Shown: piece after piece, positions 1,328 through 63,247 of the stretch
Position numbering within the stretch: the first letter of the stretch is position 1
Layout: every line of letters begins with the position of its first letter
Source of the DNA: Mustelus asterias
Lineage: Eukaryota
Direction: 5' to 3'
Assembly: GCF_964213995.1 (NCBI RefSeq)
Contig: NC_135808.1
Location: 25,172,001-25,236,000, forward strand
Length of the DNA: 64,000 nucleotides
Program-made: the position numbers and the translations under genes
The notes under the pieces: generated by a model
The model's input: the letters and a program-made list of their open reading frames with translations, nothing else
Databases searched by the model: none
Told to the model about the DNA's origin: nothing

Positions 1328-2734
1328 TTATCTTGTCGCACCAATGTTCTTGTACTGACAGATAAGGAGATGCTTGAAGGTTTTCTTGAAGGAAGGGTTA
1401 CACAGGGCGTAGCATGCTGGGTTGATTGTACTGTTGATATATGCGAGCCAAAATCCAATAGTCCAGACATTGCTCGGGACACAGGTTGAACAGAAAGTGT
1501 TAATGAGCACTGTGACGAAATATGGGCTCCACGTAATGATAAATGCCAGGAGAATGGCCAAGATGGTTCGAGTCACTTTCTCCCCTCGAGATACAGCTCC
1601 CTTCTTCTTGTTCACAGGGGCATTGGCCATTATAATAATTTTATGGTCTGCTCTCTTGTCCCTTTCATTCCCATTCTTGCCTTTGAAACCTGGAACTTTT
1701 CTTTCAGCGGTATCACAGTCACTTTTCTGATATTTGCGAACAACCTTTATGAAAGTAAGTTTGGGGTAATCCATCCTGGAACTGCTTTGAGCATCACAAA
1801 TATTTCTGCACCCGTGCATGGTTCCTTCATCCTTCCCCTTTGCTGATACCACGCTGGACGATGTTGACTCTTTGGATAATTCAATCTCATCTCCTTGGCA
1901 ACAATTCTCAATTGTTATTTCGTCAGTTATTATGTCATTTTGCATTTTTACATTTGCCAACCCATTAGGAACATAGAACATGTTGCAATTATTCGGTTTC
2001 ATTATTTTGCCCTTCACCTGACTCTGAGTAGCTGTGTCTTTGCTTGACCCAGTCTCTTTATTACCCTCCTTGACACGACTTTTGCTAGCATGAGATATTT
2101 GCACATATAATATCACCATGATAGTAACAGGGAGGTAGAAGGCAACCAAGGCAGTGCCGAACGTGACAGCTGGATTGGAGAATAACTGCACATAACACTC
2201 GCCCTCACGGACTGTCCGCTCCCCTACGATGAACTGCCAGAAGAGAATGGCAGGAGCCCACATGATAAAGGACACCACCCAAACAGCTGCGATCATAATC
2301 CCTGCCACCTTGGCTGTTCTCTTCACGGGGTAGCTGAGGGGCTTTGTCACGCAGAAGTAGCGGTCAAAGCTAATGACAAGGAGGTTCATGCCAGAAGCAT
2401 TGCTAGCAACATAATCTAGAGCAAGCCACAAATCACATACAACAGGGCCCAACGGCCAGTAGCCAACAACAGTGTAAATGGTGTACAAATTCATAGAGAA
2501 CAAACCGATAAACAAATCAGCACAGGCTAAGCTGAAAAGAAAGTAGTTGTTAATGGTTTGTAAATGTCTGTTTACTTTTATAGACACAATAACGAGAACG
2601 TTTCCAATAATTGTCACCAAGCTTAAAGATCCTGTCACAATCACAATGAAGACCACTTCGACTGTATTGTAAGAACTCCCTCTTTCAGCAGTTTGATTGT
2701 TGAGAGATTCACCTATCTGTGTTGAGTTTTCCAT
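1328..2734 (-). CDS. CHRM2: Muscarinic acetylcholine receptor M2-like, copy A (468 aa, single coding exon, altered orthosteric pocket)
   Basis: Intact 7TM ORF with M2 signatures: [82 protein letters not shown] and C-terminal YKNIGATR. Splice acceptor (ttttctacatttag|) 36 nt upstream of the ATG, AG at 2771-2772. Paralog, not necessarily the 1:1 ortholog. Confidence 0.95.
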
Positions 2735-6000: not shown

Positions 6001-7120
6001 AACAAAGAACAAAGAAAAGAACAACACAGGACATTTGACCGCCCAAGCCTATCCCGATGATGATGCCCTATCTAAACTAAAAAAAACCTTCCACCATTAC
6101 TCCAGTCGTATCCCGCTATTCCCTCCCTATTCGTGTAACCATCCAGATGCCTCTTAAATGTTGCTAATGTGCCTGCTTCCACCAGCTCCTCTGGCATCGC
6201 ATTCCATGCACCCACCACTCTCTGCATGAAAAAGCTCCCCCGCACATCTCGCTTAAACTTTCCCCCTCTCACCTTAAATCTGTGCCCCCTTGTAATTGAT
6301 GTGTCCAACCTTGGGGAAAGCTTCTGACTATCCATCCTGCCTATGCCTCTCATTATTTTGTAGATCTTTATCAGGTATCCCCTCAGCATCCGTCTTTCCA
6401 GTGAAAACAATCCTAGTTTATTCAACCTCTCACAATGAACACCCTCGAGATCAGGCAACATCCTGGTGAACCTCCTTTGCACTCTCTGCAAAGTTTCCAC
6501 GTCCTTCCCGTAATGTGGTGACCAGAACTGTACGCAATACTCCAAATGTGGCATAACCAAGGTTTTCCATAGGTGCAACATGATTCAACAACTGTTGTAT
6601 TCAAAGCCTCGGCTGATGAAGGCAAGCATGCCATATGCGTGCTTAATCACCTTGGCCACCTGTGTTGCCACTTTTAGGAAACGGTGGACCTGCACGACCA
6701 GATCACTCTATGTCAATGTTCCTAAGGGTTCTGCCATTTTTAGTATAATTCACACCTAAATTTGATCCTCCAAAATGCATCACCTCACATTTGTCCTGAT
6801 TATACCCCCTCTGCCATTTCTGTGCCCAGGTCTCAAATCTACCTATATCCTGTTGTATCCTCTGACAATCCCCCGCACTATCAGCAACTCCACTAATCTT
6901 CGTGTCATCTGCAAATTTGCTAATCAGACCACCCATATTTTCCTGCAGATCATTTGCATCTACTGCAAACAACTGAGATCCCAACACTGATCCTTGTGGA
7001 ACACCACTAGCTACAGATCTCCATTCTGAAAGGCACCTTTCCACCACTATTCTGTCTTACTCCTTACTTCTCTAACCTAGCCAGTTCTGTGTTCATTTAG
7101 GCAGCCCGAATTCCATGCGA
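6001..7120 (-). mobile_element. CR1 LINE 3' fragment (RT and C-terminus, frameshifted)
   Basis: SGVPQGSVLG, KFADDTK, HLEYCVQFWSPH; tail of short TTCTTTG-type repeats. Confidence 0.9.
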
Positions 7121-7286
7121 TTTTCTTTGAGTTATGACTTCAAATTATTTGTTTTATCCTATTCCGATTTCAGTGCACAACTCATGGTAGCTATCAATGA
7201 TTTACTTCCCATCTGTAAATTTCAAATTCAAAGTGAAGGGCTTTGGTTGTTTTCACATCGTGGTTTGTCTTCTGTGAGAATGGTTC

Positions 7287-7830
7287 AAAGAACAAACAAA
7301 GAACAAAGAACAATACAGCACAGGAACAGGCCCTTCGGCCCTCCAAGCCCGTGCCGCTCCCTGGTCCAAACTAGACCATTCTTTTGTATCCCTCCATTCC
7401 CACTCCGCTCATATGGCCGTCTAGATAAGTTTTAAACGTTCCCAGTGTGTCCGCCTGCACCACCTTGCCTGGCAGCGCATTCCAGGCCCCCAGAACCCTC
7501 TGTGTAAAATATGTCCTTCTGATATCTGTGTTAAACATCCCCCCCTTCACTTTGAACCTATGACCCCTCGTGAACGTCACCACCGACCTGGGGAAAAGCT
7601 TCCCACCGTTCACCCTCTCTATGCCTTTCATAATTTTATACACCTCTATTAAGTCTCCCCTCATCCTCCGTCTTTCCAGGGAGAACAACCCCAGTTTACC
7701 CAATCTCTCCTCATAACTAAGCCCCTCCATACCAGGCAACATCCTGGTAAACCTCCTCTGTACTCTCTCCAAAGCCTCCACGTCCTTCTCGTAGTGTGGC
7801 GACCAGAACTGGACGCAGTATTCCAAATGC
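7287..7830 (-). mobile_element. 5'-truncated CR1 LINE
   Basis: HLEYCVQFWSPHYEKDVEALERVQRRFTRMLPG. Same subfamily as the 3' end of the element at 13485. Confidence 0.9.
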
Positions 7831-8308
7831 AATGTGATTGGCTGCCTGAATTGCTTCATGACACCTGGAGATTGCTTTGATTGGTGCCAAATTAAAGCTG
7901 GCATAGGGAAAGAGGAAATCCAGGGCACAGTGGCCTTTGGATATTGGGGAACTGATTCCTTAGATGTCATTCTTTTCTTGGGCCAGGATTAAAACATTCA
8001 AGTCCTGTAATTACAGAGCGACAGCATGGGCCTGGGGCTGACTATCGGTAACTAACGAGCTCTTTCGGCGGAACTTGTGCTTCCGCTGGCCCCAGAGGAC
8101 TGAATTTTCAAATTTTACAACATACGATTTTGTTTGCATCCTCTGATTGGTTCACCACCATCGCTGAAGATCCCTTAAGGGGACTAGGCAAGTCATATGA
8201 AATGATTCCGAAACAAGGACCCTGGATCGCCAGATGAGATACTCAATAGTTCAGATGAATTTTTCACATGATTCATTGCGAGTAGAATGATCTCTCATTA
8301 CCCCTGTC

Positions 8309-9753: not shown

Positions 9754-10652
9754 TCATTTAATGAATTTAACAAGTTGAGCAAATGGATATTTGACCATAT
9801 ACTTCAACTGCTCTCTGAACTTGTTCTGAGTCACGGCATGAATACAAATATGCATGTAGCAACGCAGGAGCTGCAACATGAACCCTATTTCCTGTAGACA
9901 GTGAGACACGAATAGAGACTCATAACCTAAAAACCACATTCGAATCCATATAGAATGGAACACATGTACTGACCATAACAAGATGAAATTCCCAGAGACA
10001 ACAAACAATAAAATGATGGATTTTCTATGACTCTCCACCTCTGGGACTCTGGGACTCTCCCTACTGCTGCGATCCTGGAGTCTCCTTCGGACCCCATTGG
10101 GCAATAAAATGTGTCCAACGGTGAAAGCATTGAGAAGCAGAATCAGAAGAAAAGGGACTCCCGGTGTAAGAATGTAGTGGATGAATTCGGCCAGTAACCA
10201 GATTCGTGATTGTTTAATATTGTTTGGTATGGAACAAAGCCAGGGGGAATTCCACAGCCGAAATTCGTCTATGAGCATGAAATACCATGTGACATCCTTT
10301 AAGGAAATCAGCGCCGTCACTGTCGAAAGAGCCAAAACTGCTGTTTTCTCGGTGCAATATTTACTTTTCAGCTTCTCACAAAAAATTGCCACAAACCGAT
10401 CCATGGTGAAAGTGACGGTGAACCAGATAGAACAGTCTCTGGCTACATGAAGCAGAGTGATGTGGATATTGCATGCGTGGATGACATACACGAAAATAAA
10501 ATGTTTCTGCTCAACAATCAGAATGTGTCTTATTGCCATGTCGATAATAACAAACAGTAGATCCACTGCTGCCATGGCCACCAGATAACGTGTAACACAT
10601 TTGGAGAGACTACACTTTCCCCGGGACAGGATCACCATTGTCACTACGTTAA
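9754..10652 (-). CDS. GPR139-like orphan GPCR copy A, coding exon 2 (333 aa spliced)
   Basis: Acceptor tctatctctttctcatag|TT AAC GTA. 899-nt open frame with ILSRGKCSLSKCVTRYLVAMAAVDLL, TFTMDRFVAI and KFREQL, typical of the expanded chondrichthyan GPR139-like family. Confidence 0.9.
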
Positions 10653-10769
10653 CTATGAGAAAGAGATAGAAACATGGAGATTATATATCAGGCTTGACTC
10701 AATGCTTCCACTTCACTATGACCTTATTGAGAAGTCAACAGCTTTGACAACATCCAGTAACATATTGAA

Positions 10770-11975
10770 ATATTGCTATCCCGGTGTCTTCCTCTCTGTC
10801 CCATGGACCTATGCTTTCCTTGATTACGTGCAAGGCATCTGCTTCCACAGAGGATTGGTCATCAAATTCCTGAAACTACCAAGATGGAGAGCCCAGGAAA
10901 TGTTTTGACTGTTTTGATTAGAAACGTTCTGTATACTGATCTTGCTGCATTAGTTGGCTAGACTAACGACCAGCATCAAATATTCATGGATCATCTGTGC
11001 CATGTATATACGCTCTCCTCTCCTCAAACTCAAGAAAATCTCCAACGATATATCGAGTTCTTTCAGCTCTGATGATCTTTATTCTCCAACTGATCTGTGT
11101 TTTCCCCATCGATATGGAAGAATCTTACCTCCACACATGATCAGACTAGAAACTCTTTAACCTATCAAGCCTGAAAGGCAACAGTAAAGAGTGACATGCT
11201 CTAATCAGAAAACCTCTGTATGCTGAAGAGGCTGCACTGGTTACACAGTCAAGTAATCAGCTTCAGAGTCTCCTGGATCATCCGCACCACCTGTGCCCTT
11301 TTCACACTCTCCATCATTGTCAAGAATTCTGCAACCATGGGGCTTTTTTTTCTCTGACTGTGACCAAACTCAAAACACAATATTGAAGCAGCCAGAATGT
11401 TCTGCTTCTTTGAAACTTTGGTGACTAAAAACCAATCATTTTACTCCGAGCTCAGCACAATATATGAAATATTTATAAATGTATAATCGACTCATAAAAG
11501 AGATATTTAAAAAAAACAGATACTGACATAAAGGGCCAGAATGCTTCATTCACAAGACCTGAATCTACATGCCTTTGCGGTGTCGCTGTGAAGCATGTCC
11601 GACCTTCACCTACCAATAACAAAGGCTCAATCGTGTTTAACTTCCAAATCTGTAATATATCCATGGCATCACTTCAGAACACAAATACTTTCTGAAATAA
11701 GTGTCAGAAGCACGCTCGTGCAATTCAAGCAAATAATGATAAGCAGTGGCCTGGACATGTGTGCAGGATCTTTTGTATTCAGGATTGAAGATGGTTGCAT
11801 CCCCAAAGGTGTGCTTAATCGGGAGGAAATCGGGCAAAGTTGGCAGAGAGCACATATATCTCCGATTGTTGGAAATATTGAAAAGAGAAATGATAGCCCT
11901 CACAATGAAAGTCCAGAAGAGGGGATCTCTAGCCGACGATCAATGTAAATGGGGACATCAGCTGTGGTCAGAAAT
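10770..11975 (+). mobile_element. Ancient RTE-clade LINE RT fossil in the intron of GPR139-like A
   Basis: Translates in part as LIRKPLYAEEAALVTQSSNQLQSLLDH (YADD region) and RIEDGCIPK. A second short YADD-like segment lies at about 10915-10975. Confidence 0.65.
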
Positions 11976-13096
11976 TTGCCATCATGCCAGAGTGTTGTTT
12001 CAGAAGTTCCAGCCCTGATAATTAGGTACCGGTAGAGAAAACGCACATTTATGGGATGAAACAATTTCATGAGTGACAAATGAAGCAGACTTTTCCTTTC
12101 CAGAATCTGTTTGTTTGTCATTCAACTAAGTAAAGAAGCTCGGGAGATGGTGGCGAAGTGCCATTGTCACTGGACTAGTAATCCTGAGACTCCGGACAAC
12201 TCTCTGGGAACAGGGTCCTAATCTTACTACAGAAAAAGATGCAACTAATATTTAATAAACAGCCTGGAATCACGATTAAACCATTGTTGATCATCATCAA
12301 AACCCACCTCAAGTGCTAATGTCCATTGAGGGAAGATAATTATCTGCTCTTAGGTGGTCTGAGATATAAGTGACTCCAGGCCCAGGCAGAGACTCTCACA
12401 TCCCATGAATGAATTGGGAAACAAAAAGATTTTACTTGTTCCAGTAAAAGGGGCTGAGTGTTACAAATACTATAGACAATAAGACGATAAAGAGAAAGGG
12501 ATCGACTAGAAAGGAATTGACAGGATTCACTTAGCTACTCCCTTGACTGTATTAATCTGCATCAATTATCGAAATATAACTGTCACAATGTTATCTTCAG
12601 CAGAAAGTGATTAATATTAAATTAAAGTGATCACCAAATGGAAAGTAGTGCTTGTGTGAAGTAACAAGATCAAATATAACAGGAAGTGACCTCGATTATT
12701 GAAACTTGATCATGATTCATTAGAGCAAAATGATTCAGCGTTTATCTGTTGTCTGCCTGCACACATATAAGTTTCTATTTCATGGCATTTTTATCTCTAT
12801 CTATAGCAATCGGATTCCTGATTGATAATCTGTGTTGGAAACTCAGAAATTAAATTAATTTTAGGAAAAATAAATCAGGTAGCAGAAATGATCGCAGTGA
12901 GGGTGTGTCACTCATTGTCATCAGGATTAAAGGATTGGTTTATAGTAATCCAACAAAGTGAAATTAAAACAGCATGACAGAACAAAATAAGATCATTGAC
13001 TAAATGTAATCGCTGGAACTGCTGATTTTAAATGATGAGTCAGTGATGCACTTGAAATACATTTTGTCGAACTAAAACCACGATATTGAGACTTAC

Positions 13097-13199
13097 GTGG
13101 AACACCAATAGCAGCAAGGAGACGGTAGTAAATCTTTTCTAAGTCATTAATGAAATGAATTATCTTCAATTGGTCCATTCCCGTGGAGCTACTGATCAT
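13097..13199 (-). CDS. GPR139-like orphan GPCR copy A, coding exon 1
   Basis: 103 nt encoding MISSSTGMDQLKIIHFINDLEKIYYRLLAAIGVP plus 1 nt, followed by a consensus donor C|GTAAGT (13091-13096). The phase-1 join to exon 2 restores TM1 (GVPLNVVTMVIL). The second Met is an alternative start. Confidence 0.88.
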
Positions 13200-13484: not shown

Positions 13485-16400
13485 AACAAAGAACAAAAGA
13501 ACAAAGAACAATACAGCACAGGAACAGGCCCTTCGACCCTCCAAGTCTGCGCCGCTCATGTGCCCAACTAGACCATTCTTTTGTATCCCTCTATTTCCAG
13601 TCTGTTCATGTGGTTATCTAGATAAGTCTTAAACGATCCCAGCGTGCCCGCCTCAATCACCTTGCTTGGCAGTGCATTCCAGGCCCCCACCACCCTCAGT
13701 GTAAAATACGTCCCCCTGACATCTGTGTTGAACCTTGCCCCCCTCACCTTGAACCCGTAACCCCTTGTGTTCATCACCTCCGACCTGGGAAAAAGCTTCC
13801 CACTGTTCACTCTATCTATGTCCTTCATAATTTTATACACCTCTATTAGGTCACCCCTCATCCTCCGTCTTTCCAGGGAAAACAACCCCAGTTTACCCAA
13901 TCTCTCCTCATAGCGAAGACCCTCCATACCAGGCAACATCCTGGTAAACCTTCTCTGTACTCTCTCCAAAGCCTCCACGTCCTTCTGGTAGCGTGGCGAC
14001 CAGAACTGGATGCAGTATTCCAAATGTGGCCTAACCATCGTTCTATACAGCTGCAACATCATATGCCAACTTTTATATTCTATCCCCTGTCCAATAAAGG
14101 CAAGCATGCCACATATCTTCTTCACCACCCTCTCCACCTGTGCTGCCATCTTTAAGGATCTGTGGACTTGTACACCCAGGTGCCTCTGTGTGTTTATACT
14201 CCTGATGGTTCTGCCATTTATTGTATAGCTCCCTCTTACACTAGATCTACCAAACTGCATCACTTCGCATTTATCTGGATTAAATTCCATCTGCTATTTC
14301 TCCACCCAATGTTCCAGCCTATCTACATGCTGCTGTATTCTCTGACAATGTTCCTCACTATCCGCAACTCCAGCAATCTTCGTGTCATCCGCAAATGTAC
14401 TGATCACACCAGCTACATCTTCCTCCAAATCATTTATATATATATATATATATCACAAACAGCAGAGGTCCCAGAACAGAGCCCTGCAGAACACCACTGG
14501 TCACAGACCTCCAGCCGGAAAAAAGACCCCTCCACTGCTACCGTCTGTCTTCGATGGCTAAGCCAGTTCTCCACCCATCTAGCGAGCTCACCTTTTATCC
14601 TGTGAGATTTAAACTTTTGCACCAGCCTGCCATGAGGGACCTTGTCAAACGCTTTACTAAAATCCATATAGATGACATCCACGGCCCTTCCCTCGTCAAT
14701 CGTTTTAGTCACCTCCTCAAAAAACTCAACCAAATTTGTGAGGCATGACCTCCCTCGTACAAAACCATGCTGTCTATCGCTAATGAGATTATTCAGTTCT
14801 AAATGCGCATATATCCTATCTCTAAGAAGCTTCTCCAACAACTTCCCTATGACAGACGTCAAGCTCACCGGCCTATAATTACCCATGTTATCCTTGCTAC
14901 CCTTCTTAAATAACGGGACCACATTTGCTGTCCTCCAATCCTCTGGGACCTCACCTGTGTCCAGTGAAGAGACAAAGATTTCTGTTAGAGGCCCAGCAAT
15001 TGCATCTCTCGCCTCCCTGAGGAGTCTCGGAAAGAAGTCCTTGGCCCTGGGGATTTGTCGGTCTTAATGCTTCCGTAAAAACCTAACACTTCCTCCCTTG
15101 TAATTGAGATTTTTTCTAACGGGTCAACACATCTCTCTAAGACACTACCAGTCAACATGTCCCTCTCCTTTGTGAATACTGATGAAAAGTATTCGTTTAG
15201 GATCTCACCTACTTCCTTCGGTTCCAAGCATAATTCTCCTTCTTTGTCCCTGGGAGGTCCAATTCTTTCCCTAACAACCCTCTTGTTCCTAACGTATGCC
15301 TTAGGATTCTCCTTAATCCTGTGTGCCAAGGACATTTCGTGACCCCTTTTTGCCCATCTAAGTCCCTGTTTGAGTTCTTTTCTACTTTCTCTGTATTCCT
15401 CCAGTGCTCCATCTGTTTTTAGCTCCCTGGACCTCAGGTATACCTCTTTTTTCTTTTTGATTAGACCCACAATTTAACTGGTTATCCACGGCTCCTGAAT
15501 CCTACCTTTCCTATCCTTCCTCTTTACAGGCACATGCCTGTCCTGCAGACCTATCAACTGCTCCTTAAAAAACTCCCACATGCCAAATGTGGATTTACCC
15601 TCGAACAGCCTCTCCCAATCAACAGCCACCAAATCCTGCCTAAACCGGCTGTAGTTAGCCTTCCCCCAATTCAGCACCTTACCCATAGGACAATATTCAG
15701 CTTTTCCCATTACTGTCCTGAAGTTCACAGAATTGTGTTCACTATTTGCCACATATTCCCCCACTGCAACATTGATGAGCTGACCGGGCTCATTCCCCAG
15801 TACTAGGTCCAGTATAGCCGTCTCTCCAGTTGGACTGTCAACATATTGTTCCAAAGAACCTTCCTGTACGCATTTTATAAATTCTTCCCCGTCCAGGCCC
15901 CCAGCCCTAAGCGATTTCCAGCCTATGTGAGGGAAATTAAAGTCTCCCACTCCAACAACACTATTTCTTCTGCATCTGTACAGAATCTCCTTACATAAGC
16001 GTTCCTCAACGCCCCGTGGGCTGTTGGGAGGCCTGTAGTATACCCCGAGCATAGTGACTGCGCCCTTCCTGTTTCTGAGCTCCACCCAGAGTGACTCGTT
16101 ACCTGACCCTTCCATATTGTCCAGCCTCTGTACCGCTGTAATATGCTCCCTAACCAGCATTGCTACTCCCCCATTTCTCCTAGCCCCTCCTCTGTCTCGC
16201 CTAAAACACTTGTACCCCGGAATATTCAGCTGGCAGTCCTGTCCTTCTTTTAACCAAGTCTGCGTCACTGCAACCACATCCAAGTTCCGCACAAGCATTA
16301 AGGCTCTAAACTCATCTGCCTTGCCCGTGACGCCCTTTGCATTGAAGCAGATGCATTCCAGACCTCCAGGCCCACTGAAGTCTTCTTCCCCCACAATGTC

Positions 16401-21474: not shown

Positions 21475-24400
21475 AGAAACATACATGGAAAATAAAAGCA
21501 TGAGTTGGCCATTCGGCCCTTTGAGCCTGCTCTGCCATTCATTATGATCGTGGTTGATCATCAAATTAAATACCCTGATCCCGCGTTCCCTCCATGTCCC
21601 TTGATCCATTTAGCCCCAAGAGTTATATTTCATTACTTCTTGAAATCACACAACGTTTTAGCATCACATTCATTCCGTGGTTGTGAGTTCCACACATTCG
21701 TCAGCCTCTGGGTGAAGACATTTTTCTGCACCTCAGTTAAACATTGAAAGCTTTTCACCATTCTGGAAGGATTCTACGTTCTAGAGGGATTACCCCCTGT
21801 CCTCAAACTGTGACCCCTAGTTCTGGCCTCCCCCACCTTCGGGAACATTCTTTCTGAATCTACCCTATCGAAACCTGCTAGAATTTTGTACGTTTCAGTA
21901 AGATTACCTCTCACTCTTCTGAACTCCAATGAATATAATCCAAACCGACTTAACCTCTCCTCATATGGCATTCCTGCCATCCCAAGAAGCAGCCTGGTAA
22001 ACCTTCAATGCACTCCTTCTGTAGCAAGAACATTCTTACTCAGATAAGGACACCCAAACTGTAAACAAAATACTCCAGGTGTCACCTCACCAGTAAAATT
22101 GTAGTAAAATATCCCTATTTCTGTATTCAAATCCTCTCGCTATGAAGGCCAACGTGCTATTTCCGTTCTTTATTCCCTGCTGTACCTGCACGCACACATT
22201 CAGTGAATGATGCACGAGGTTTTACCACGTATTCATCTTTTTTCATTCAAATAATAATCTACCATCCTGTCTCTGCTACTAAAGGCGACAACCTCACATT
22301 TATCCAAACGACCCGCTATCCCATTTGCTTTATCATTAGATAGTAAACTGCTATGTCAGACAATTTAAAAAGTATTCTGAAAATCTAAATAAACCACCTC
22401 TCTCTGGTCAACTCGATTATTTACATCCTGAAAGAATTCCAGTAGAATTTTCAAGCATGATTTCCCTTTCATAAATCCACACTGACTGTGTCGATTATAC
22501 CACTGCTTTCCACAACTGCTATGAAATCCTTGATAATGAACTCTAACGCCTTCCTTACTACCGATGTTAGGCTCACTGGTCTACACAAAGGAAGATATTA
22601 ATAACACAAAAAACGGGTGGAACTTGAATCACAGGGGGACCAATATCCTGGCCGGTAGGTTGGCTAAGGCTACTGGGGAGAATTTAAACTAGATAGGTTG
22701 GGGGGAGGGGAGCTAGAAGAGTTGACTGGATCAAGGAACTAATTGATGGGGGGGAGGATGCAGGGGTAAGGGGAATTACAAAATTAATGGTAGAGGAGAG
22801 GGTGCAAGTGAATGAAGGCGGTAATTTAGATAAGGGAGTAGAGGGAGAGGGTGTTCGTGACTCATCAAAGCGGGTCCAGATAAAAGCTGGAATAAGGACA
22901 CTTTGCCTGAATGCACGAAGCATTCGGAACAAGGTAAATGAGTTGATGGTGCAAATCAGCACAAGTGGGTACGATCTAGTGGCCATTACAGAAACGTGGC
23001 TGAAAGGTGACCAGGACTGGGAGATGAATATCCAGGGGTATCAGGCGTTTAGGAAGAATAGACAGGAAGGAAAAGGTGGTGGGGTCGCGCTATCAATAAG
23101 AGATAATATCAGGGTAGTACTGAGGGATGACATAGGCTCTGAGGAACAAAACGTGGAATCATTATGGGTAGAGATGAGGAATAGTAGAGGGAGAAAGACA
23201 CTAGTAGGTGTGGTATATAGGCCCCCAAATAATAATGTTGAGGTAGGGAGGGCTATAAACAAGCAGATAAGGGATGCGTGTAAAAACGGAACGGCAATAA
23301 TCATGGGGGACTTCAACATGCACATTGACTGGCAGACTCAAGTCGGTAAGGTTGGAATGGAGGAAGAGTTCGTAGAATGCTGTCGGGATAGTTGCCTTGA
23401 ACAGCATGTTACGGAACCGACGAGGGAACGAGCTATTTTGGATCTGCTATTGTGTAACGAGGTAGGTAGAATTAAGGATCTTATTGTGAAGGACCCTCTT
23501 GGGTCTAGTGACCACAATATGGTCGAATTTCTGATTCAGATGGAAGAGGAGAAAGTTTGGTCCCAAACCAGTGTCCTCTGTTTGAACAGAGGGAAATATG
23601 ATAGGATGAATTGGCTAAGGTAGGCTGGGAGAGCAGGCTGGCAGGTAGGATAGCTGAGGAACAGTGGAGGATTTTTAAGGAGATCCTTTTCAGTTCTCAG
23701 CAAAAATATATTCCAGCAAAAAACAAGGATTGTAAGAAAAGGGAGAACCAGCCGTGGATAACGAAGGAAATAAAGGAGAGTATTAAAATAAAAACAGCTG
23801 CGTACAGAGTGGCCAAAAATAGTGGAGAAACAAGTGATTGGGAAAAATTTAAGAAACAACAAAGAGAGACTAAGAAAGCGATAAAGAAAGGAAGGATAGA
23901 CTATGAAGCTCGGCTAGCAATTAATATAAAAAATGATAGTAAAAGTTTTTATAAATATATAAAAAGGAATAGAGTGGCTAGAGTGAATGTTGGACCCTTG
24001 GAGGACGAGAGGGGGGAGTTAATAATGGGAAATGAGGATATGGCTGAGTCTTTAAATAAGTTTTTTGTGTCGGTCTTCACGGTGGAGGACACAAATAGTT
24101 TACCAAATATTAACGATAGAGGGTTGGCAGCAGGAGAAATACTTAATACAATTAATGTTACCAGAGAGGCAGTGCTGGGTAGACTAATGGGACTGCAGGT
24201 GGACAAGTCCCCGGGTCCGGATGGAATGCATCCCAGGGTATTGAAAGAAATGTCAGAGGTAATAGTGGATGCGTTAGTGATTATTTATCAAAACTCGTTG
24301 CATTCTGGGGTAGTGCCGGTTGATTGGAAAACGGCTAATGTTACGCCGCTGTTTAAAAAAGGAAGGAGACAAAAGGCGAGTAACTATAGGCCGGTCAGCT

Positions 24401-26880
24401 TAACGTCTGTAGTAGGGAAAATGCTGGAATCCATAAATTAAGAGGAGATAGCAGGGCATCTGGATAGAAATTGTTCGATCAATCAGACGCAGCATGGATT
24501 CATGAGGGGAAAGTCGTGCTTGACGAACATGTTGGATTTTTATGAAGATGTGACTAGGGCGGTTGATGGAGGAGCACCGGTGGATGCGGTGTTTTTGGAT
24601 TTCCAAAAGGCATTTGATAAGGTGCACCATAAAAGGCTGCTGAAGAAGATTAGGGCACACGGAGTTGGGGGTAGTGTGTTAAAGTGGATTGGGGACTGGC
24701 TATCCGACAGGAAGCAAAGAGTCGGAATAAATGGGTGTTTTTCCGGTTGGAGGAAGGTAACTAGTGGCGTGCCGCAGGGATCGGTACTCGGGCCGCAACT
24801 ATTTACCATTTATATAGATGATCTGGAGGAGGGGACAGAGTGTAGGGTAACGAAGTTTGCAGACGACACAAAGATAAGTGGAAAAGTGAATGGTGTGGAG
24901 GACGGAGAAGATCTGCAGAGAGATTTGGACAGTCTGATTGAGTGGGCGAGGATATGGCAAATGGAGTATAACGTTGATAAATGCGAGGTTATACACTTTG
25001 GAGGAAATAATAACAAATGGGATTACTATCTCAATGGAAACAAATTAAAACATGCTACCGTGCAAAGGGACCTGGGGGTCCTTGTGCATGAGACGCAAAA
25101 GCCCAGTCTGCAGGTACAACAGGTGATCAAGAAGGCAAATGGGATGTTGGCCTATATTGCGAGGGGGATAGAATATAAAAGCAGGGATGTCTTGATGCAC
25201 CTGTACAGGGCATTGGTGAGGCCGCAGCTGGAATACTGTGTGCAGTATTGGTCCCCTTATATGAGGAAGGATATATTGGCATTGGAGGGAGTGCAGAGAA
25301 GGTTCACCAGGTTGATACCGGAGATGAGGGGTTTGGATTATGAGGAGAGGCTGAGGAGATTGGGTTTGTACTCGTTGGAGTTTAGAAGGATGAGGGGGGA
25401 TCTTATGGAGACTCATAAGATAATGCGGGGGCTGGATAGGGTGGAGGCGGAGAGATTATTTCCACTTAGTAAGGAAGTTAAAACTAGAGGACACAGCCTC
25501 AAAATAAAGGGGGGTCGGTTTGAGACAGAGTTGAGGAGGAACTTCTTCTCCCAGAGTTTGGTGAATCTCTGGAATTCTCTGCCCACTGAGGTGGTGGAGG
25601 CTACCTCGCTGAATATGTTTAAAACGCGGATGGATGGATTCCTGATCGGTAAGGGAATTAAGGGTTATGGGGATCAGGCGGGTGAGTGGTACTGATCCAC
25701 GTCAGATCAGCCATGATCTTATTGAATGGCGGGGCAGGCTCGGGGGGCTAGATGGCCTACTCCTGCTCCTATTTCTTATGTTCTTATGTTCTTAACATAC
25801 CGGCAGTTTTGAGAAACACATATTTTAGTGACGAGGTCACTCGCTTGTCTATATTACTCTGTTTTCACTCGACCTCAATTTTTAAACAGTAGGCTCACGT
25901 TAGCTCCTTCGATTCTGTAGGAATAATTCCAGAATCCAACGAATTTTCGAAAATAACCACCCATGCATCTATTATTTCTCGCGCCACTTTCATAAGTAAT
26001 ATGGGGTCAAGATTATCAGACCATTTATCCGCGCTTCTTCCCATTAATTTCCCCAAGCCATTTCTCTACAAATACTGATTTCCTTCAGATTCTCACTGAA
26101 ACGTGTGTTTCTCAGAACTTCTGGCACAACAGTTATGTCTTTCTTTGTGATGAGGGAAAAAAATGCGAATTTATTTCCTCAACCATTTGTTGAGACCGTT
26201 TTCTTTATTTCCACGTTTCTGATTGTAAGTGGACTATCTTCACTTTTGATTGCCCTTCCCCCTTTATATACCCATAGAAACGTTTACACTTGTTCCCTCT
26301 TAACTTACTTTCCTACTCAAATTCCCCCTTCTGGATAAATGGATTGGCCCACCTTTGCTGAATTTTAAACCATTCCTAATCTGCAGGTCTATTCCTTGTT
26401 CTTGCTAATTTGTATGCTTCTTATTTGAATCTAATATTATCTCTGATTTCCCTTGGAAGCCATGGTTTGACCTCAGTTCCATTTCCACTCTTGTGCCAAA
26501 TAGGAATAAACAACTTTTGGAGATCACCTATGTGTCTCTTGAATGCATGCCATTGCCTTTCTCCTGTTCTTCCTACAGCAGTATTTCCCAGTCCATCATA
26601 GCCAATTCGTGATTCATGAAATCATAGTTTCCTTTTATGGGATTCTGGCCCTGGTCTAAGAGCCAATTACCTCACTGTCCACGTTGATAAGGACTTCCAT
26701 CATACTATCGTCTCTCTTCCACAAGGGTTCTCTTACAACCAGTTGCCAACTAATCCTTTCTCATTGCACAATATTCAATCCAAGAATGACCTGTTGCTTT
26801 GTTGGTTCCTCAACATGTTGGTCCAGAAACCATTCGGTATACATTCCAGAAATTCCTCCTCAACTATACTGTGACTAATT
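21475..26880 (-). mobile_element. Older CR1 LINE (21475-22585 and 25800-26880) split by a younger plus-strand CR1
   Basis: YEERLSRFGLYSLEFRRVRG in the left part. The decayed minus-strand CR1 sequence resumes after 25800. Confidence 0.7.
22610..25793 (+). mobile_element. Young CR1 LINE (end of ORF1 and complete ORF2 with two disruptions)
   Basis: CLNARSIRNK, GVVYRPPN, GDFN, SDHN endonuclease motifs; RT GVPQGSVLGP/KFADDTK; frame breaks near 23610 and 24440; (TTCTTATG)n tail. Confidence 0.95.
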
Positions 26881-31884: not shown

Positions 31885-33309
31885 CTATCTTGCTGTACGG
31901 ATGTTTCTGTACTGACACAGTAGAAGATGCTTGAAGGTTTTCTTGAAGATAGGATTACACAATGCGTAGCATGCTGGGTTGATCGTGCTGTTTACATAAA
32001 CGAGCCAGTATCCAGTAATCCAGACTGTGTTGGGGACACAGATTGAACAGAACGTGTTAATAAGCACCATGGCAAAGTATGGGCTCCAGGTGATGATAAA
32101 TGCCAGGAGAATAGCCAGGATGGTTCGAGTCACTTTCTCCTCTCGTGATCCTGCTCCCTTCTTCTTGTTGTTCAAAGGGACATTGGCCATTGTAATAATC
32201 TTATTGTCTACCCTGCTTTCTCTGTCATCCCCATTATTACCATTGAGACCTGACACTCTTCTTTCCGTAGGACCACAGTCGTCACTGGATGTAGCTTTGC
32301 TCACTATCTTTATGATCGAGAGTTCGGAGTTCTTCATTGTGAAAGTGCTCTGAGCATCATAAACATTCCTGCTCCCTTGTATGGTCCCTTCATCCTTCGG
32401 GTTTGATTGTGCAACACTGGGCGATGTTGACCCATTGGGGAGACCCTTCTCTCCTGCTTGGCCACACTTATTATTTGTTATTTCACTAATTATTTTGCCA
32501 TTTTGTACTGTGACATGTGCCAACAGATGAGGACCATTTGCTATGTTGTTCTTATTTTGTTTGAGTATTTTGCTCTTTATCAAACTGCAAATAACAGCGT
32601 ACTTGTTTGATTCGGTTTCCTTTTTATCCTCCTTTACACGACTCTTGCTAGCACGTGATATTTGCACGTACAAAATCACCATGATAATAACAGGGAGATA
32701 GAAGGCAGCTATTGCAGTGCCAAAAGTGATGGCTGGATTTGTGAGGAACTGCACATAACACTCACCATCACCAACTGTCCGCTGCCCAACGATGAACTGC
32801 CAGAAGAGAATGGCAGGGACCCACAGGATAAACGACAGCATCCAAGCCGCTGCAATCATCATCCCCGCCGTTCTCACTGTTCTATTCACTGGGTAGGTCA
32901 AGGGTTTTGTCACGCAGAAGTAGCGGTCAAAGCTGATGATAAGGAGGTTCATGCCAGAGGCACTACTGGCAACATAATCGACAGCAAGCCACAAGTCACA
33001 TACCACTGTGCCCATCGGCCAGTAGCCAGTAACCGTATAAATTGTGTATAGGTTCATAGAGAATACACCAATAATCAAATCAGCACAGGCCAAGCTGAAA
33101 ATAAAGTAGTTGTTAATGGTTTGCAAATGTTTGTTTACTTTGATTGAAACGATGACTAGAATGTTTCCAATAACTGTTACCAGACTTAAAGGTCCTGTGA
33201 CAATGACAATGAAGACCACTTCGACCATTTTGTAAGGACTCTCTCTTTCCCCACCAAACACGCCTGTTGGGTTGCTGAGAGATTCATTTGCCTCTGTTGA
33301 GTTTTCCAT
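31885..33309 (-). CDS. CHRM2: Muscarinic acetylcholine receptor M2-like, copy B (474 aa from the ATG at 33309)
   Basis: Intact ORF paralogous to copy A. The ATG (MENSTE) aligns with the copy A start, and the acceptor ttttctacatttag| (AG at 33346-33347) is again 36 nt upstream. Confidence 0.95.
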
Positions 33310-34384
33310 CAGTCCCCTCTGATGTGCAGTAAGCAATGACGGGTCCTAAATGTAGAAAAGCAAATAATAAATAAGAAACAGATTTCAAGTTTTTCGAAGT
33401 TAAAAGCTACCAATAACTCATTGAAGCTCTATCAGCAAGAACATAAAAAGCTATTGGCTTTTATCAACTTGAATATGTTTGTCAAGAGTGACTTGGTTTT
33501 AATTCAGAAGCATCTCATTGGCTTATTACTATACAATTAATTATGAATTAATAGTTAACTCCTTGTGTCGAACTCAATGACACGGCAAACATGTCTGTCA
33601 GGCTTTTAGATTCAATGATCCAGTACATCTGGTTCAGACATTTTTGAGCTCTTCAAATAATTACCTGTTAAGGGAAGAATACTTAAACTCCATTGATTTT
33701 TTAATGTTAATGCATCCATTCAACATACTCACGTAAATTATTACAATCCCTATCACTGAGGTAAGTTTTGCGAGAAGAACAAATGTTACACAGTTATCCC
33801 TCCCTCATAGAAAGAATAGCTGAAAGGTACAATTAGTAATCTAGTTGTAAAATTACCTTTCTGGTGAGTGACCACAGTATGATATAATTTGCAATGATGG
33901 TTGAGAGTGAGGAAGTTAAACATGAAACCTGGATATTAAAGTTGAATAAACTGAATTATGAAGGCAAGAGGGAGAAATTGACTCATAGGGATTGGGAAAA
34001 AAATTGAAATGCATGACAGTTCATAGGTAACGGCGAGTCTTCACAAAAGTATTACATACATTCCTTCAAGTTCCAAAAACAGAAGTTAAAAAAAGCCAGC
34101 TGACAATGGCTAACAACAAAAGTTAAGGATTCTACGATACTAACGGGAAAGGCCTAAAAAGTTGGAAGAATTAGTTGTTAACCTGATGATTGGGAGGTTT
34201 GTAGAATTAAACCAAGTACGGCAAAGAAGCTGATAAATAAAAGGGAAAACAGAATGTAAATACAGTCTCGCAAAACCCACAAGAAAACGGAACGTAAAAA
34301 ACTTCTATCGGGATGTCACAAGAAGATGTTTGACGAAGACAAATGTATGTCTCCATTACAAACTGACAATTAATAGAGCAGCAA

Positions 34385-41276: not shown

Positions 41277-42175
41277 TCATTTAATGAATGTAAGAAGTTG
41301 AGTGACAGTACAGTTCACCAGATTCTTCAACCTCTCTCTGAACTTGTTCTGAGTCAGGGCATGAATACAAATATGCGTGCAACAACTTAGGAGCTGCAAC
41401 ATGAACCCTATTTCCTGTACACAGTAAGGCATCAATACAGACTCATAGCCAAAGAACCACACACGAACCCCTATAGAGTAGACAACATATGTTGACCATA
41501 ACAAGATGAAATTCCAAGAGAAAACAAAGAATAAAGTAATGGATTTCCTTCGACTCTCCATCTCTGGGTTCCCGGGAAGCTCCCCATTGTTGCAAACATG
41601 GAGTCTTCTCTGCGCTCTGCTGGCCAAAAAAATATGTCCAACCGTGAAAGCATTGAGCAGCAGGATTAGAAGAAATGGGATTCCCGGACTGAGAATGTAG
41701 TGAAGAAATTCGACGAGTGACCAGACCCCTGGTTCGATAATAGTGCTGGGTACGGAACAAAGCCAGCTGGCGTTCCACAGCCAAAAAGGAACTGTAAGCA
41801 TAAAATACGACATGATGCCCTTTAGACAGCTCAGTGCTGTCACAGTACCAAGAGCAAAAATTGCAGTTTTCTCTGTGCAATACCTAATTTTCAGCTTCTG
41901 ACAAGTAATTGCCACAAATCGATCAAAGGTGAAAGTGACGGTGAAACAGACAGAACAGTCTCTGGCGACATGGAGCAGAATTACGTGAACATTGCACATG
42001 GGGATGACATGCACGACAAGTAAATGCTTCTGATCAATAATCGGAATGTGTCTTATTATCATGTTGGTAATAACAAACAGTATATCCACCGCTGCCATGG
42101 CCACCAGATAACGTGTAACGCATTTGGAGAGTCTACACTTTCCCCGAGACAGGATCACGATTGTCACTATGTTAA
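41277..42175 (-). CDS. GPR139-like orphan GPCR copy B, coding exon 2 (333 aa spliced)
   Basis: Acceptor tatctctttctcgtag|TT AAC ATA. 899-nt open frame, the same length as copy A, with TFTFDRFVAI. Confidence 0.9.
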
Positions 42176-45478: not shown

Positions 45479-45581
45479 GTGGAGCACCAATAGCAGCAAG
45501 GAGAGGATAGTAAGTCTTTTCCAAGTCAATGATGAACTTAATTATCTTCCATTGGTCCATTGCTGTGAAGTCACTAATCAT
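45479..45581 (-). CDS. GPR139-like orphan GPCR copy B, coding exon 1
   Basis: 103 nt encoding MISDFTAMDQWKIIKFIIDLEKTYYPLLAAIGAP plus 1 nt, donor C|GTAAGT at 45473-45478. Same length and phase as copy A. Confidence 0.88.
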
Positions 45582-54441: not shown

Positions 54442-55857
54442 CTATCTTGTTGCAGCAATATTATTGTACTGACATAAGAGAAGATGTTTGAACGTTTTCT
54501 TGAACGTAGCATTACATAATGCGTAGCATGCTGGGTTGATGGTACTATTGATGTAGCAGAGCCAGTATCCAATAATCCAGAATGTGTTGGGGACGCAGAT
54601 TGAACAGAAGGTGTCAACAAGTACCATGACATTGTAGGGGGCCCAGGTGATGATAAATGCCAGCAGTATGGCTAGGATGGTCTTAGTTACCTTTTTCTCT
54701 CGAGATGCAGCTCCTTTCTTCTTCTTGGCAGGGACATTGGACAACGTAACAATCTCATTGTCTGCTCTGATTTCTCTGGCATTACTATTCCCGCTGCCAC
54801 TACCTCGCATGATACCTGTTATGCTGCCACAATCATTCTTTACAGATGTTCGAGTTGTTTTTAAGCAGGAGAGTTTGGAGCTGTCCATCCTAAAAGAGCT
54901 TTGTGTAGTAGAGATGGTTGTACTCTCTTCTACCGCCCCTTTCTCCTCTTCCATTTTTTGGACCCCACTTGGAGATTTTGACTCATTGTAGAGTTCCTTC
55001 TTCTCTTGGCTACAAGTATTAATTATTATTTCTCCAGTCATTTTGCCATTTTGCAGTTTGACTTGTGACAAATGAGCCGAATTATCTGAAATGCTGTTTT
55101 TGTTCAGGTCCATTGTCTTGCCCTTCGCTGGAGTGTGTGAAATGATTTCCTTGCTTGATTCATACTCCTGTGTATACTCTTTCATTCGGCTTTTACTGGC
55201 ACGAGATATTTGCATGTATAAAATCACCATGATAACGACAGGGAGATAAAAGGCAGCCACAGCCGTGCCAAAAGTGACAGCTGGATTTGAGAAGAACTGT
55301 ATATAACACTCACCCGCAATAACTGTCCGCTCCCCTGTGATGAATTGCCAGAAGAGAATCGCAGGAGCCCACAAAACAAACGACAGCACCCAAGCAGCTG
55401 CGACCATCATCGCTGCCATCTTCGCTGTTCTATTCACTGGGTAACTCAGTGGCTTTGTCACGCAGAAGTAGCGGTCAAAGCTGATGACTAGGAGGTTCAT
55501 GGCAGATGCATTGCTGACAACATAATCTAGCGCGAGCCACAAATCACATACCACTGGACCCAATGGCCAGTAGCCCATTACAATGTAAGTGGTGTACAGA
55601 TTCATGGAGAACACGCCAATAATCAAATCAGCACAGGCTAAGCTGAAAATAAAGTAATTGTTAATAGTTTGTAAATGTCTGTTTACTTTGATAGAAACGA
55701 TGACCAGTATGTTTCCAATAATTGTCACCAAGCTTAAACATCCTGTCAAAATCACAATGAAAACCACTTCGATTGTTTTGTAATGACTTTCTCTTTCAAT
55801 ATCGAACAAGCCTGTTAGGTTGCCGTGAGTTTCATTTATTTCTGTTGAGTTTGCCAT
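54442..55857 (-). CDS. CHRM2: Muscarinic acetylcholine receptor M2-like, copy C (471 aa from the ATG at 55857, near-canonical pocket)
   Basis: Intact ORF with [20 protein letters not shown] and [31 protein letters not shown], essentially as in mammalian M2. The ATG (MANSTE) aligns with the A and B starts. Confidence 0.95.
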
Positions 55858-57199
55858 TATTCCTCTCTGAGGTGCAGTTAACACTGACGAGACATAAATG
55901 CAGAACAATAATTTTTTTAAAAAGAAACAGGTTGCAGATGTTCAAATTAAATTGGATGCTAATTGAAGTTCTACAAACAAGAACATTGAAAGGAAATTGT
56001 AAAATTCAAAATGTTTGTCAGAAAGAACTTTGTTCTAACCAGGATCTATCTCATGTGATAATTTATGAACAAATAATTATGAAATAATAGATAATAACTT
56101 GATGTTGATGAGGGTCTTTGCCAACATGTCTCCTTGTTTTATATTTATTGATCCGATTGTTCTGGGTTAATTAGCTTTGCTCTTAGTATGTTGGTAAAGC
56201 AAAGTCACCACAGCCACAAAAGTCCACAGACTGTTTTCCCCTTTGAGGGGAGAAGCTGACTGGTGGTGACTAAACCTGAGGATCACAACACCTCTGGCAA
56301 GGAGCAAGGTTGAGAAGGCTTGCCTTTATGAATTTGTTCAGCCGGTATGGGAATTGAACCCGCCTCACTAACCAGCTGGCCAGCCAACTGAGAATGCAGC
56401 GCAGGTTGCCATCGTGGGATGGCAGGATTTTTGAATGATGAGGGATTAGTTCTGACAGGCCCTTGCTTGCATTTAGAAGAATGAAAGTGGATCTAATAGA
56501 AACGTACACAATTTGGATAGGGCTGGAAAAATGTATATTTCCTCTGACTGGAATGTCTCGAACAAGGTGCAACAGTCTCAGAATGTTTGCATCGTCCTGT
56601 GAGGTAAGACAGTTTTAAATCACATCAGAGAGCACATACGCCACTCCAGATTTCTCCAACTGATTCTGCATCCTCCCACCAGAACATCACTTCCTCAGTA
56701 CTGATTATCCTGAAATATTTCCTCAATGCTGATCCTCTGATTGTGCAGCTCCTCTTAACTACACCCCCCCCACCCCCCATCCCACTACAGTCTGGTACTC
56801 CTATCCTTATGAAAGTGCAAACTATATTCAGTGATGACCATCCTTACACCACTGAAGCATTCCCTCAGTATTTGAGGGAATAGACTGTCATCAGATTCTC
56901 CACTGTTTGGGAAATCAGTGATTTGGTGGAAAAACTAGACGAAATAACTTGTCCTCTGTTAATGTACAAATGTGCATGCAATTCTAACCGCGCTGCATAA
57001 GGTTGAGGAGGGATGATGTTTCCCCTGGCTTGGACCAAACAGTCACGGTTGCAAGATACGGGGTTGGCTATTTAGGTCGAAGACAAGGAGAAACGGCTTC
57101 ACTCAGAGGGCGGTGAACATGTGGAAAGCTCTACCACTAGAGTATGAATAATCTCTGCCACAGGTTGAGTGTCTTGGGCTGCAAGAGGTAATGGTTAAA

Positions 57200-58608: not shown

Positions 58609-59537
58609 TTAGCGTTGATGTTGGAAATTATTCACTCTTTTCACCATAAATTTCGCAATTTGAGAACAGAGATATTTGGACATATTCTTAAACTGCTCTC
58701 TGAACTTTGTCTGAGTCGCAGCATAAACGCAAGTGTTTGTGCAACAATTCAGGAGCTGAAGGTTGAATCCTATTTCTTGGACATTATCGGTCAACAGTAC
58801 TGACCCATACCCAAAAAAAGACATTTTAACCCATACATAATACATAATATATATTGAACAAGACAGGATGAAATTTCCAGAGATTAACAGCAGTAAAAAT
58901 ATATAATTTCTTCTGCTCTCTATCTCTAGGTCTGTGAGATTTTCCTTACTGCTGTGACCCTCAAGACTCCTGTGGGTTCTGTCGGAGAATAAAATATGTC
59001 CAACAGTTAAAACACTGAACAGCAGAATTAAAACATATGGGACACCCAGGGTGAGAATATCGTGAATGAGAATGACTGTGAACCAGCCTTGCAATTCCGG
59101 AACATTGTTTGGTACAGAACAAAACCAGGGGATGTACCACAGTCCATTCTGATCTGTTAATACAAAATGCCACATTGTAGCCTTTAAACAACACAAAAGT
59201 ATCACTATTCCCAGAGCTGCAACCGCCGTTTTCTCACTGCAATATTTCCTTTTCAGCTCCTTGCAGTAAATGGCCACAAATCCATTAAAAGTGAAAGTGA
59301 CAGTGAACCAGGCAGAAGAGTCTGCGGTTGCATAAAGCAGGGTGCCAAGGACATTGCACATGGGGACGTGATAGTCAAAAAGAAACTCTTCCTGATAGAC
59401 TGTCAGAATGCTCCTCATTATCAGGTTGATAATTATTACCAGCAGGTCTGCTGCTTCGATGGCCACCAGGTAGCATGTAAAACCCTTCGAGAGACCACAC
59501 TTTCCCCGCAACAGTATCACAATTGTCACTACGTTAA
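58609..59537 (-). CDS. GPR139-like orphan GPCR copy C, coding exon 2 (exon 1 not found, presumably beyond the window end)
   Basis: Acceptor ttccctctttctcgtag|TT AAC GTA. Open frame with ILLRGKCGLSKGFTCYLVAIEAADLL and NTCVYAATQTKFREQF. The DRF motif is replaced by NGF, so function is uncertain. Confidence 0.8.
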
Positions 59538-59669
59538 CTACGAGAAAGAGGGAAATGAGAATAAGAAACGAGGAATAATACATTCGGCCAAATGAAAAGT
59601 TAACATTTTCACTGAATAGTTACTGAAATCTGAAAAAAAATCAAAATATGTAGTGAAATATTGAATTGT

Positions 59670-63140: not shown

Positions 63141-63247
63141 ATGAACAAGCAATCTACAAACTGAACGTAGTAAATTAGAGACGGCAGACAATGAGAAAGA
63201 GGTGAATTCTGAGTCATTTAAGATAAATGTTCCAATGTTTCTCTGTG

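Follow-up and report, generated by a model that had tools for sequence, protein, structure and literature searches.

In the present study, we analysed a window of 64,000 nucleotides from the genome of the houndshark Mustelus asterias (contig NC_135808.1, positions 25,172,001 to 25,236,000) and found an M2-like receptor gene, copy B, whose ligand pocket differs from that of its parent gene CHRM2. The explanation that we favour, and to which we give about an even chance, is that copy B is an intact, selectively kept CHRM2-derived receptor with its ammonium cage retained and the ester side of its pocket rebuilt, predicted to couple to Gi/o and to respond to a cationic amine other than acetylcholine. 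The observation made in the initial annotation stands and extends further than was noticed there. The gene and its key codons are as follows.

31885..33309, minus strand: copy B, an intact single-exon CHRM2-derived G-protein-coupled receptor of 474 amino acids (open reading frame, PDB match, Pfam and tree)
31999..32001, minus strand: GTT, Val437 of copy B (C7.42V)
32008..32010, minus strand: TAC, Tyr434 of copy B (Y7.39 present, tyrosine lid)
32074..32076, minus strand: TTT, Phe412 of copy B (N6.52F)
32743..32745, minus strand: CTC, Leu189 of copy B (F45.55L, the M2 F181 position)
32953..32955, minus strand: GGC, Gly119 of copy B (V3.40G, in the P5.50-V3.40-F6.44 connector, a triad named in an excerpt of PMC9870890)
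32962..32964, minus strand: AGT, Ser116 of copy B (N3.37S)

The best PDB match of copy B was human M2 (E = 4e-190), and the protein contained a Pfam 7tm_1 domain. Alignment to M2 confirmed every residue and codon that the initial annotation had assigned to copy B (S3.37, G3.40, F6.52, V7.42 and Leu at the F181 position), as well as its remark that Phe 6.52 is encoded differently in the two copies, by TTC in copy A and TTT in copy B; the codon is AAT in copy C and in canonical CHRM2. Copy B has D3.32 and every residue of the tyrosine cage (Y3.33, Y6.51, Y7.39 and Y7.43). The DRY, NPACY (NPxxY) and TM6 VTRTIL motifs of the M2/M4 Gi/o subtype were also intact, so far as sequence can tell, and Gi/o coupling is a prediction on that basis. 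The VTIL residues, which form the TM6 motif VTxTIL of the M2/M4 subtype, presumably play a role in Gi selectivity. N3.37, V3.40, N6.52 and C7.42 were each unchanged in 79/79 non-elasmobranch M2 cluster representatives, including four unnamed records assumed to be bony vertebrates; thus the changes in copy B go beyond chance. Copy B has Ser, Gly and Val in place of the muscarinic N3.37, V3.40 and C7.42, and Phe in place of N6.52, the residue of the acetyl/water bridge and an activation hotspot. Because of this last difference, we did not class copy B as a demonstrated muscarinic receptor, though it is of the CHRM2 lineage by descent. The weakest item of the set was F45.55L, since M1, M3 and M5 of this genome ordinarily have Leu there, as do human M1 and M3-M5 according to an excerpt of PMC9870890. 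The CHRM4 gene of this genome (L008) has Phe, not Leu, at 45.55.

Errors of sequencing or assembly were rejected as a source of the key codons, because contigs of the public runs X1 and X2 (both from one sample, which may be that of the assembly itself) contained no alternative letter there and the orthologs have the same residues. Coverage by X1 and X2 was even across the gene and its flank, and that by X3 and X4, whose run kind is unrecorded, was sparse. Differing letters were observed in the X1 and X2 runs at 32870 and 32307 of the coding sequence; read by hand, these are T147M (back to the canonical M4.41) and I335L, neither of which lies in the pocket. Pseudogene status was rejected as well, given the open frame and a dN/dS of 0.12.

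Genome searches, whose counts are lower bounds, located at least 14 derived M2-like copies on contig C8, at least 11 intact and at least three broken (L011 by an in-frame stop, L018 by stops, L045 as a fragment). Canonical CHRM2 (L002) and one CHRM4 lie on contig C9, and M1, M3 and M5 elsewhere. Two further derived copies are present in the window.

1328..2734, minus strand: copy A, 468 amino acids, with V3.40G, N6.52F, Y7.39F and C7.42A (open reading frame and alignment)
54442..55857, minus strand: copy C, 471 amino acids, with V3.40A as its only pocket change and N6.52 kept (open reading frame and alignment)

F6.52 was present in 7/11 intact derived copies, and N6.52 was retained in copies C, L005, L006 and L009. 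Several observations on individual loci are recorded here. L006 and L009 are nearly identical, 2.4 Mb apart and in opposite orientation, and represent a recent or an assembly duplication. L010 (G000:C8:21.31 Mb), with T3.37, S5.43, S5.46, F6.48 and F6.52, is the most catecholamine-receptor-like copy, and the basking shark protein P0016 resembles it. The lineage of copy D (L007, P0040, P0017 and P0145) combines A5.46G with a kept Y3.33; we take A5.46G to be one of the two engineered DREADD substitutions. CHRM2 and CHRM4 are 2R ohnologs, and their presence on one contig here (L002 and L008, G000:C9:36.0 and 81.1 Mb) possibly reflects a chromosome fusion. Fragments of LINE reverse-transcriptase/endonuclease reading frames, recognised by eye, occur in the window at 6072-7970, 13568-16298, 22787-25695 and 61667-63178 and are ordinary repeats.

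Homologs were collected from the best 120 matches per search and by a cluster look-up. Among the matches listed, derived copies, automatically named 'M2-like', occurred in catsharks, basking and white shark, carpet sharks, stingrays and skates, and none was found for squalomorph sharks, Heterodontus or chimaeras. In the eight other galeomorph species with both genes listed, canonical CHRM2 and the derived copies were on contigs that differ in length. We built a quick IQ-TREE of 62 rows and a fast tree without the 18 pocket columns, which agreed on the main points; deep branches were weak in both. The PDB match and both trees placed copy B with CHRM2, not with CHRM4 or CHRM1/3/5, and the galeomorph derived copies formed a clade beside galeomorph CHRM2. 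Copies A and B were sister lineages (SH-aLRT 96 and 94 in the two trees) with copy D (L007) as their outgroup, and ortholog pairs were also recovered without the pocket columns. Catsharks have two co-ortholog pairs of copy B, 4/4 with S3.37, G3.40, L45.55 and F6.52, and with V or F at 7.42. The suggestion that N6.52F preceded the split of A and B was upheld, as F6.52 also occurs in six catshark orthologs, in copy D and in the lamniform proteins P0017 and P0145. Copy D and these lamniform proteins, which have F6.52 together with A5.46G, indicate that F6.52 is likely older than the lamniform-carcharhiniform split. The order of residue changes was read from tree tip states. The initial annotation described Y7.39 as kept in copy B; the Tyr is there, but it may be a reversion, because copies A and D both have F7.39/A7.42. 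Carpet shark copies have H or D at 6.52, and the copies of stingrays and skates fall inside batoid CHRM2, with N6.52S in 6/7 stingray rows and N6.52H in a skate. Judged from these sequences, N6.52 was replaced separately in carpet sharks, stingrays and a skate, in the stingrays and the skate within separate expansions.

The surroundings of copy B point to the way in which the family spread. Its similarity to canonical CHRM2 spans the coding exon and continues upstream for about 500 bp (to 33816), including intron sequence; a retrocopy origin was therefore rejected in favour of a DNA-level copy. The relevant features of the window are listed below.

33310..33816, minus strand: stretch derived from canonical CHRM2 that takes in the 5' portion of the coding exon, a splice acceptor whose AG precedes the ATG by 36 nt, and intron sequence of about 470 bp
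41277..42175, minus strand: GPR139-like exon 2, the cassette partner of copy B (open reading frame; family name from Atlas clusters of the A-cassette paralog)
45479..45560, minus strand: GPR139-like coding exon 1 with GT donor, giving an open frame of 328 amino acids with exon 2
9754..13178, minus strand: GPR139-like gene of the A cassette (exon 2 reading frame 9754-10638, exon 1 about 13098-13178)
58609..59583, minus strand: GPR139-like open reading frame of the C cassette

Upstream of each M2-like copy in the window, on the same strand, is a GPR139-like gene of two exons; for the C cassette, exon 1 of that gene was not found within the window. Matches between the A unit and the B unit fall at offsets of 30.5-32.4 kb, which indicated that the duplicated unit is a cassette. 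In roughly 10 kb of flanking sequence on each side of canonical CHRM2, no GPR139-like gene was found. A CHRM2 coding exon was copied at the DNA level to a place beside a GPR139-like gene on another chromosome, and the two were amplified jointly. The retention of canonical CHRM2 would have left the copies free to change. This genome contains a very large GPR139-like family (4328 first-look candidates, many on small contigs, with 150/150 of those scored matching); our literature search found no paper on a shark GPR139 expansion, and the family may constitute a separate finding.

There is a hint that the copies use the promoter or first exon of their partner. Three of the eight long carpet shark RefSeq models inspected (P0116, P0183 and P0175; automatic models that may be artefacts) join a GPR139-like exon 1 to an M2-like exon, and at L010 such an exon 1 (L052:1342-1422) is present 1.9 kb upstream, with no exon 2 detected in the interval. 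Joining of GPR139-like exon 1 in frame to copy B was unsupported, because phase 1 at the end of that exon does not fit phase 0 at the acceptor identified before the ATG of copy B. In copy C (55858-55900, minus strand), the first acceptor AG is lost and a second AG, 10 nt downstream, is kept; the opposite holds in copy B.

To compare the pocket with its surroundings, 198 TM and ECL2 sites were used. The 18-site pocket list was one that we take to represent the M2 orthosteric positions, and its division into cage and ester side was drawn after inspection of the table. The 11-site list in an excerpt of PMC10938299 served as a check. The initial annotation had proposed that diversification was concentrated in the pocket. 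By raw variability this was not so: the family showed 4.89 parsimony changes per pocket site vs 4.23 elsewhere (48 derived rows, p = 0.26), and copies A and B differed at 4/18 pocket vs 30/180 other sites (p = 0.37), with a dN of 0.096 in the pocket vs 0.084 in TM. Such parity was the very outcome that the annotation had named as speaking against its proposal. Set against the baseline of 82 non-elasmobranch M2 rows, with 0.11 changes per pocket site vs 0.84 elsewhere, it indicates that at some point the pocket ceased to be specially protected. Against equally constrained sites, the proposal fared better. When only all-muscarinic-invariant sites were counted, the pocket had 4.94 changes per site vs 2.41 (p = 0.003; p = 0.055 with the published 11-site pocket). 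For a 31-row set the corresponding value was p = 0.014, or 0.063 without 3.40, and the pocket did not differ significantly from the invariant sites of the extracellular half (3.0 vs 2.2, p = 0.17). In copy B itself, 4/17 invariant TM sites were changed in the pocket vs 1/87 outside it (p = 0.002), so that 4/5 of its changes at such sites fall in the pocket.

The strongest test was the timing of change. Six houndshark-catshark ortholog pairs, with one catshark partner picked per copy, differed at 2/108 pocket vs 129/1080 other TM sites, which supports maintenance of the pocket changes by selection. Derived states common to both partners amounted to 24/108 in the pocket and 91/1080 elsewhere, and unique shared derived states to 15 vs 51 (p = 2e-6, a value that, like the others of this test, is optimistic because the pairs have common ancestry). 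The 11-site pocket gave 0/66 differences and 8 vs 51 unique states (p = 7e-5), and omission of 3.40 gave p = 3e-5. Simple relaxation does not predict this pattern, in which pocket residues were altered after duplication and thereafter held constant as other sites kept drifting. The cross-species tests were made on proteins, and dN/dS was calculated among the paralogs of this genome. For copy B vs canonical CHRM2 (NG86, dS 0.54), dN/dS was 0.12 in TM, 0.32 in the pocket and 0.59 in ICL3; positive selection was not directly evident, as none of the three classes exceeded 1. The pocket dN was 0.176 vs 0.063 in TM, about 2.8 times. Across the 48 derived galeomorph rows, the cage was retained in nearly all (D3.32 in 46, Y3.33 in 48, Y6.51 in 47 and Y7.43 in 48). 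C7.42 was retained in 26/48, N6.52 in 17/48 (F in 23, D in 4 and H in 4) and V3.40, the most widely changed site, in 6/48. D3.32 is lost in two derived copies, P0014 of basking shark (G) and P0180 of bamboo shark (Y).

The muscarinic cage residues are named in PMC9870890 and PMC10938299. According to an excerpt of PMC9870890, those of M2 bind the ammonium head, and N6.52 contacts the acetyl group via water. The kept cage, the loss of N6.52, the monoamine-like F6.52 and the intact DRY, NPACY and VTRTIL motifs together suggest a Gi/o receptor for an ester-less cationic amine. Pocket residues were altered after duplication and then stayed the same across species. On our favoured explanation, D3.32 with Y3.33, Y6.51, Y7.39 and Y7.43 would keep hold of the ammonium head; F6.52 would abolish the Asn-water bridge that reads the acetyl group of acetylcholine and triggers TM6 movement; and G3.40, S3.37 and V7.42 would turn the deep pocket non-polar. 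As agonists we predict ammonium or amine compounds that lack an ester, of the choline or the trimethyl/alkyl-ammonium type. Acetylcholine is predicted to be at most a weak or partial agonist of copy B and atropine a poor blocker, and copies A, B, D and other lineages would each prefer different ligands, in line with the earlier inference of receptors tuned to different ligands. In published work, the human M2 mutation N404Q made acetylcholine a partial agonist (PMC11987023), and a charge-only fragment of acetylcholine activated M3 with a 600-fold lower potency (PMC11793849).

A serious, if somewhat doubtful, rival is that copy B is still an acetylcholine receptor, in which potency, efficacy, kinetics or sensitivity to antagonists has changed, and that the paralogs form a graded set. 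It agrees with the retention of all five cage residues in copy B and of N6.52 in copies C, L005, L006 and L009. Three published results, each taken from an excerpt, also speak for it and against the favoured explanation: N404Q lowered efficacy only, with no loss of acetylcholine affinity (Kd 1.65 vs 3.62 uM, PMC11987023); N6.52 is critical for antagonists and less so for agonists (PMC10938299); and the insect B-type receptors have altered pharmacology, with acetylcholine retained and atropine block lost (PMC7203735). In addition, V3.40, changed in 42/48 rows, is part of the P-V-F activation connector (PMC9870890, excerpt), so V3.40G may tune efficacy rather than ligand choice. However, replacement of Asn by Phe is a much harsher change than the Gln substitution of N404Q and is accompanied by three further changes at invariant sites, and a graded sensitivity would not obviously call for about six distinct frozen pocket types (at most seven changes each) beside an unchanged CHRM2.

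We consider it improbable that the changes mainly set basal, ligand-independent Gi signalling or make copy B a modulator or decoy. Positions 3.40 and 6.52, with 6.44, 6.48, 5.50 and 5.58, which are changed in other copies, are activation-switch positions, and among invariant sites, those of the G-protein face have changed less than those of the extracellular half (1.1 vs 2.2 changes per site, p = 0.005); the almost perfect conservation of D3.32 and the tyrosine cage, however, argues that an amine still binds. Equally unlikely, and largely refuted for copy B, is that the copies hitchhiked with amplification of the GPR139-like cassettes and drifted under relaxed selection: the joint duplication with a huge family, the broken copies (3/14), the ortholog differences at non-pocket TM sites (12% vs 3%, 6/180, in canonical CHRM2), the median TM dN/dS of 0.23 among derived pairs and the raw pocket rate equal to that of TM fit this view, but the pocket is frozen between orthologs while the rest of TM drifts, the frame of copy B is open at a low TM dN/dS, and in several cassettes the M2-like gene is intact where GPR139-like exon 2 is broken or absent.

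The favoured reading, that copy B is a retuned amine receptor, was also considered against known receptors. Copy B is a direct descendant of CHRM2 and shares with it the single coding exon, D3.32, the tyrosine lid, DRY, NPxxY and VTRTIL, but it has N3.37S, V3.40G, N6.52F and C7.42V and belongs to a multicopy family on another chromosome, in a GPR139-like cassette. Its F6.52 and small hydroxyl residue at 3.37 resemble those of monoamine and histamine H1 receptors; 11 loci of this genome yielded eight whole monoamine receptors, and 8/8 of these, whose family labels we assigned from their motifs, have F6.52 with T3.37. Unlike catecholamine and serotonin receptors, copy B lacks F6.51 and the TM5 Ser/Thr triad (it has Y6.51, F6.52, T5.42, A5.43 and A5.46), and it has T5.39 and A5.46 where the H1-type gene of this genome (L019) has K5.39 and N5.46. 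Histamine- or catecholamine-receptor identity was thus rejected from the tree and the TM5 residues. Teleost CHRM2a/2b are likewise extra vertebrate CHRM2 copies but come from the 3R whole-genome duplication (PMC6298421, excerpt); in the same excerpt, six proposed acetylcholine residues are conserved in all vertebrates of a species list without cartilaginous fish. Compared by description, the insect B-type receptors are Gi/o-coupled with atypical pharmacology (PMC7203735, excerpt), as predicted for copy B, but constitute an ancient single subtype that uses acetylcholine, whereas the shark genes are a multicopy expansion. An analogy in mode of working is offered by the TAARs, in which a brain amine receptor was duplicated into a repertoire with diversified amine pockets; TAARs, however, are olfactory and group with HTR4/TARL (PMC8890504, excerpt), whereas the shark copies descend from CHRM2.

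A broader reading, which we offer tentatively and regard as rather doubtful, is that elasmobranchs repeatedly made CHRM2 into a TAAR-like amine-sensing family: its exon would have moved beside one gene of the giant GPR139-like family, taken over the promoter or first exon of that gene and diversified towards non-acetylcholine amines in the cells that express the family. The amines would be choline, methylamine or osmolyte-type compounds, or else cues from prey and conspecifics.

We found no description of a shark muscarinic expansion in the open-access literature, and a search of the main text gave no match for 'muscarinic' in the genome papers on the catshark and the whale shark. The orthosteric site of vertebrate muscarinic receptors is treated as invariant, and subtype-selective orthosteric drugs are accordingly hard to make. 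Dozens of pocket variants that arose naturally and passed selection occur in sharks and rays, at N6.52, V3.40, N3.37, A5.46, W6.48 and C7.42. Whichever explanation applies, the copies are a ready panel on the roles of N6.52 and the P-V-F connector in ligand choice and efficacy. If the copies bind other amines, they would represent a new receptor repertoire in a group thought, according to an excerpt of PMC8455134, to be GPCR-poor.
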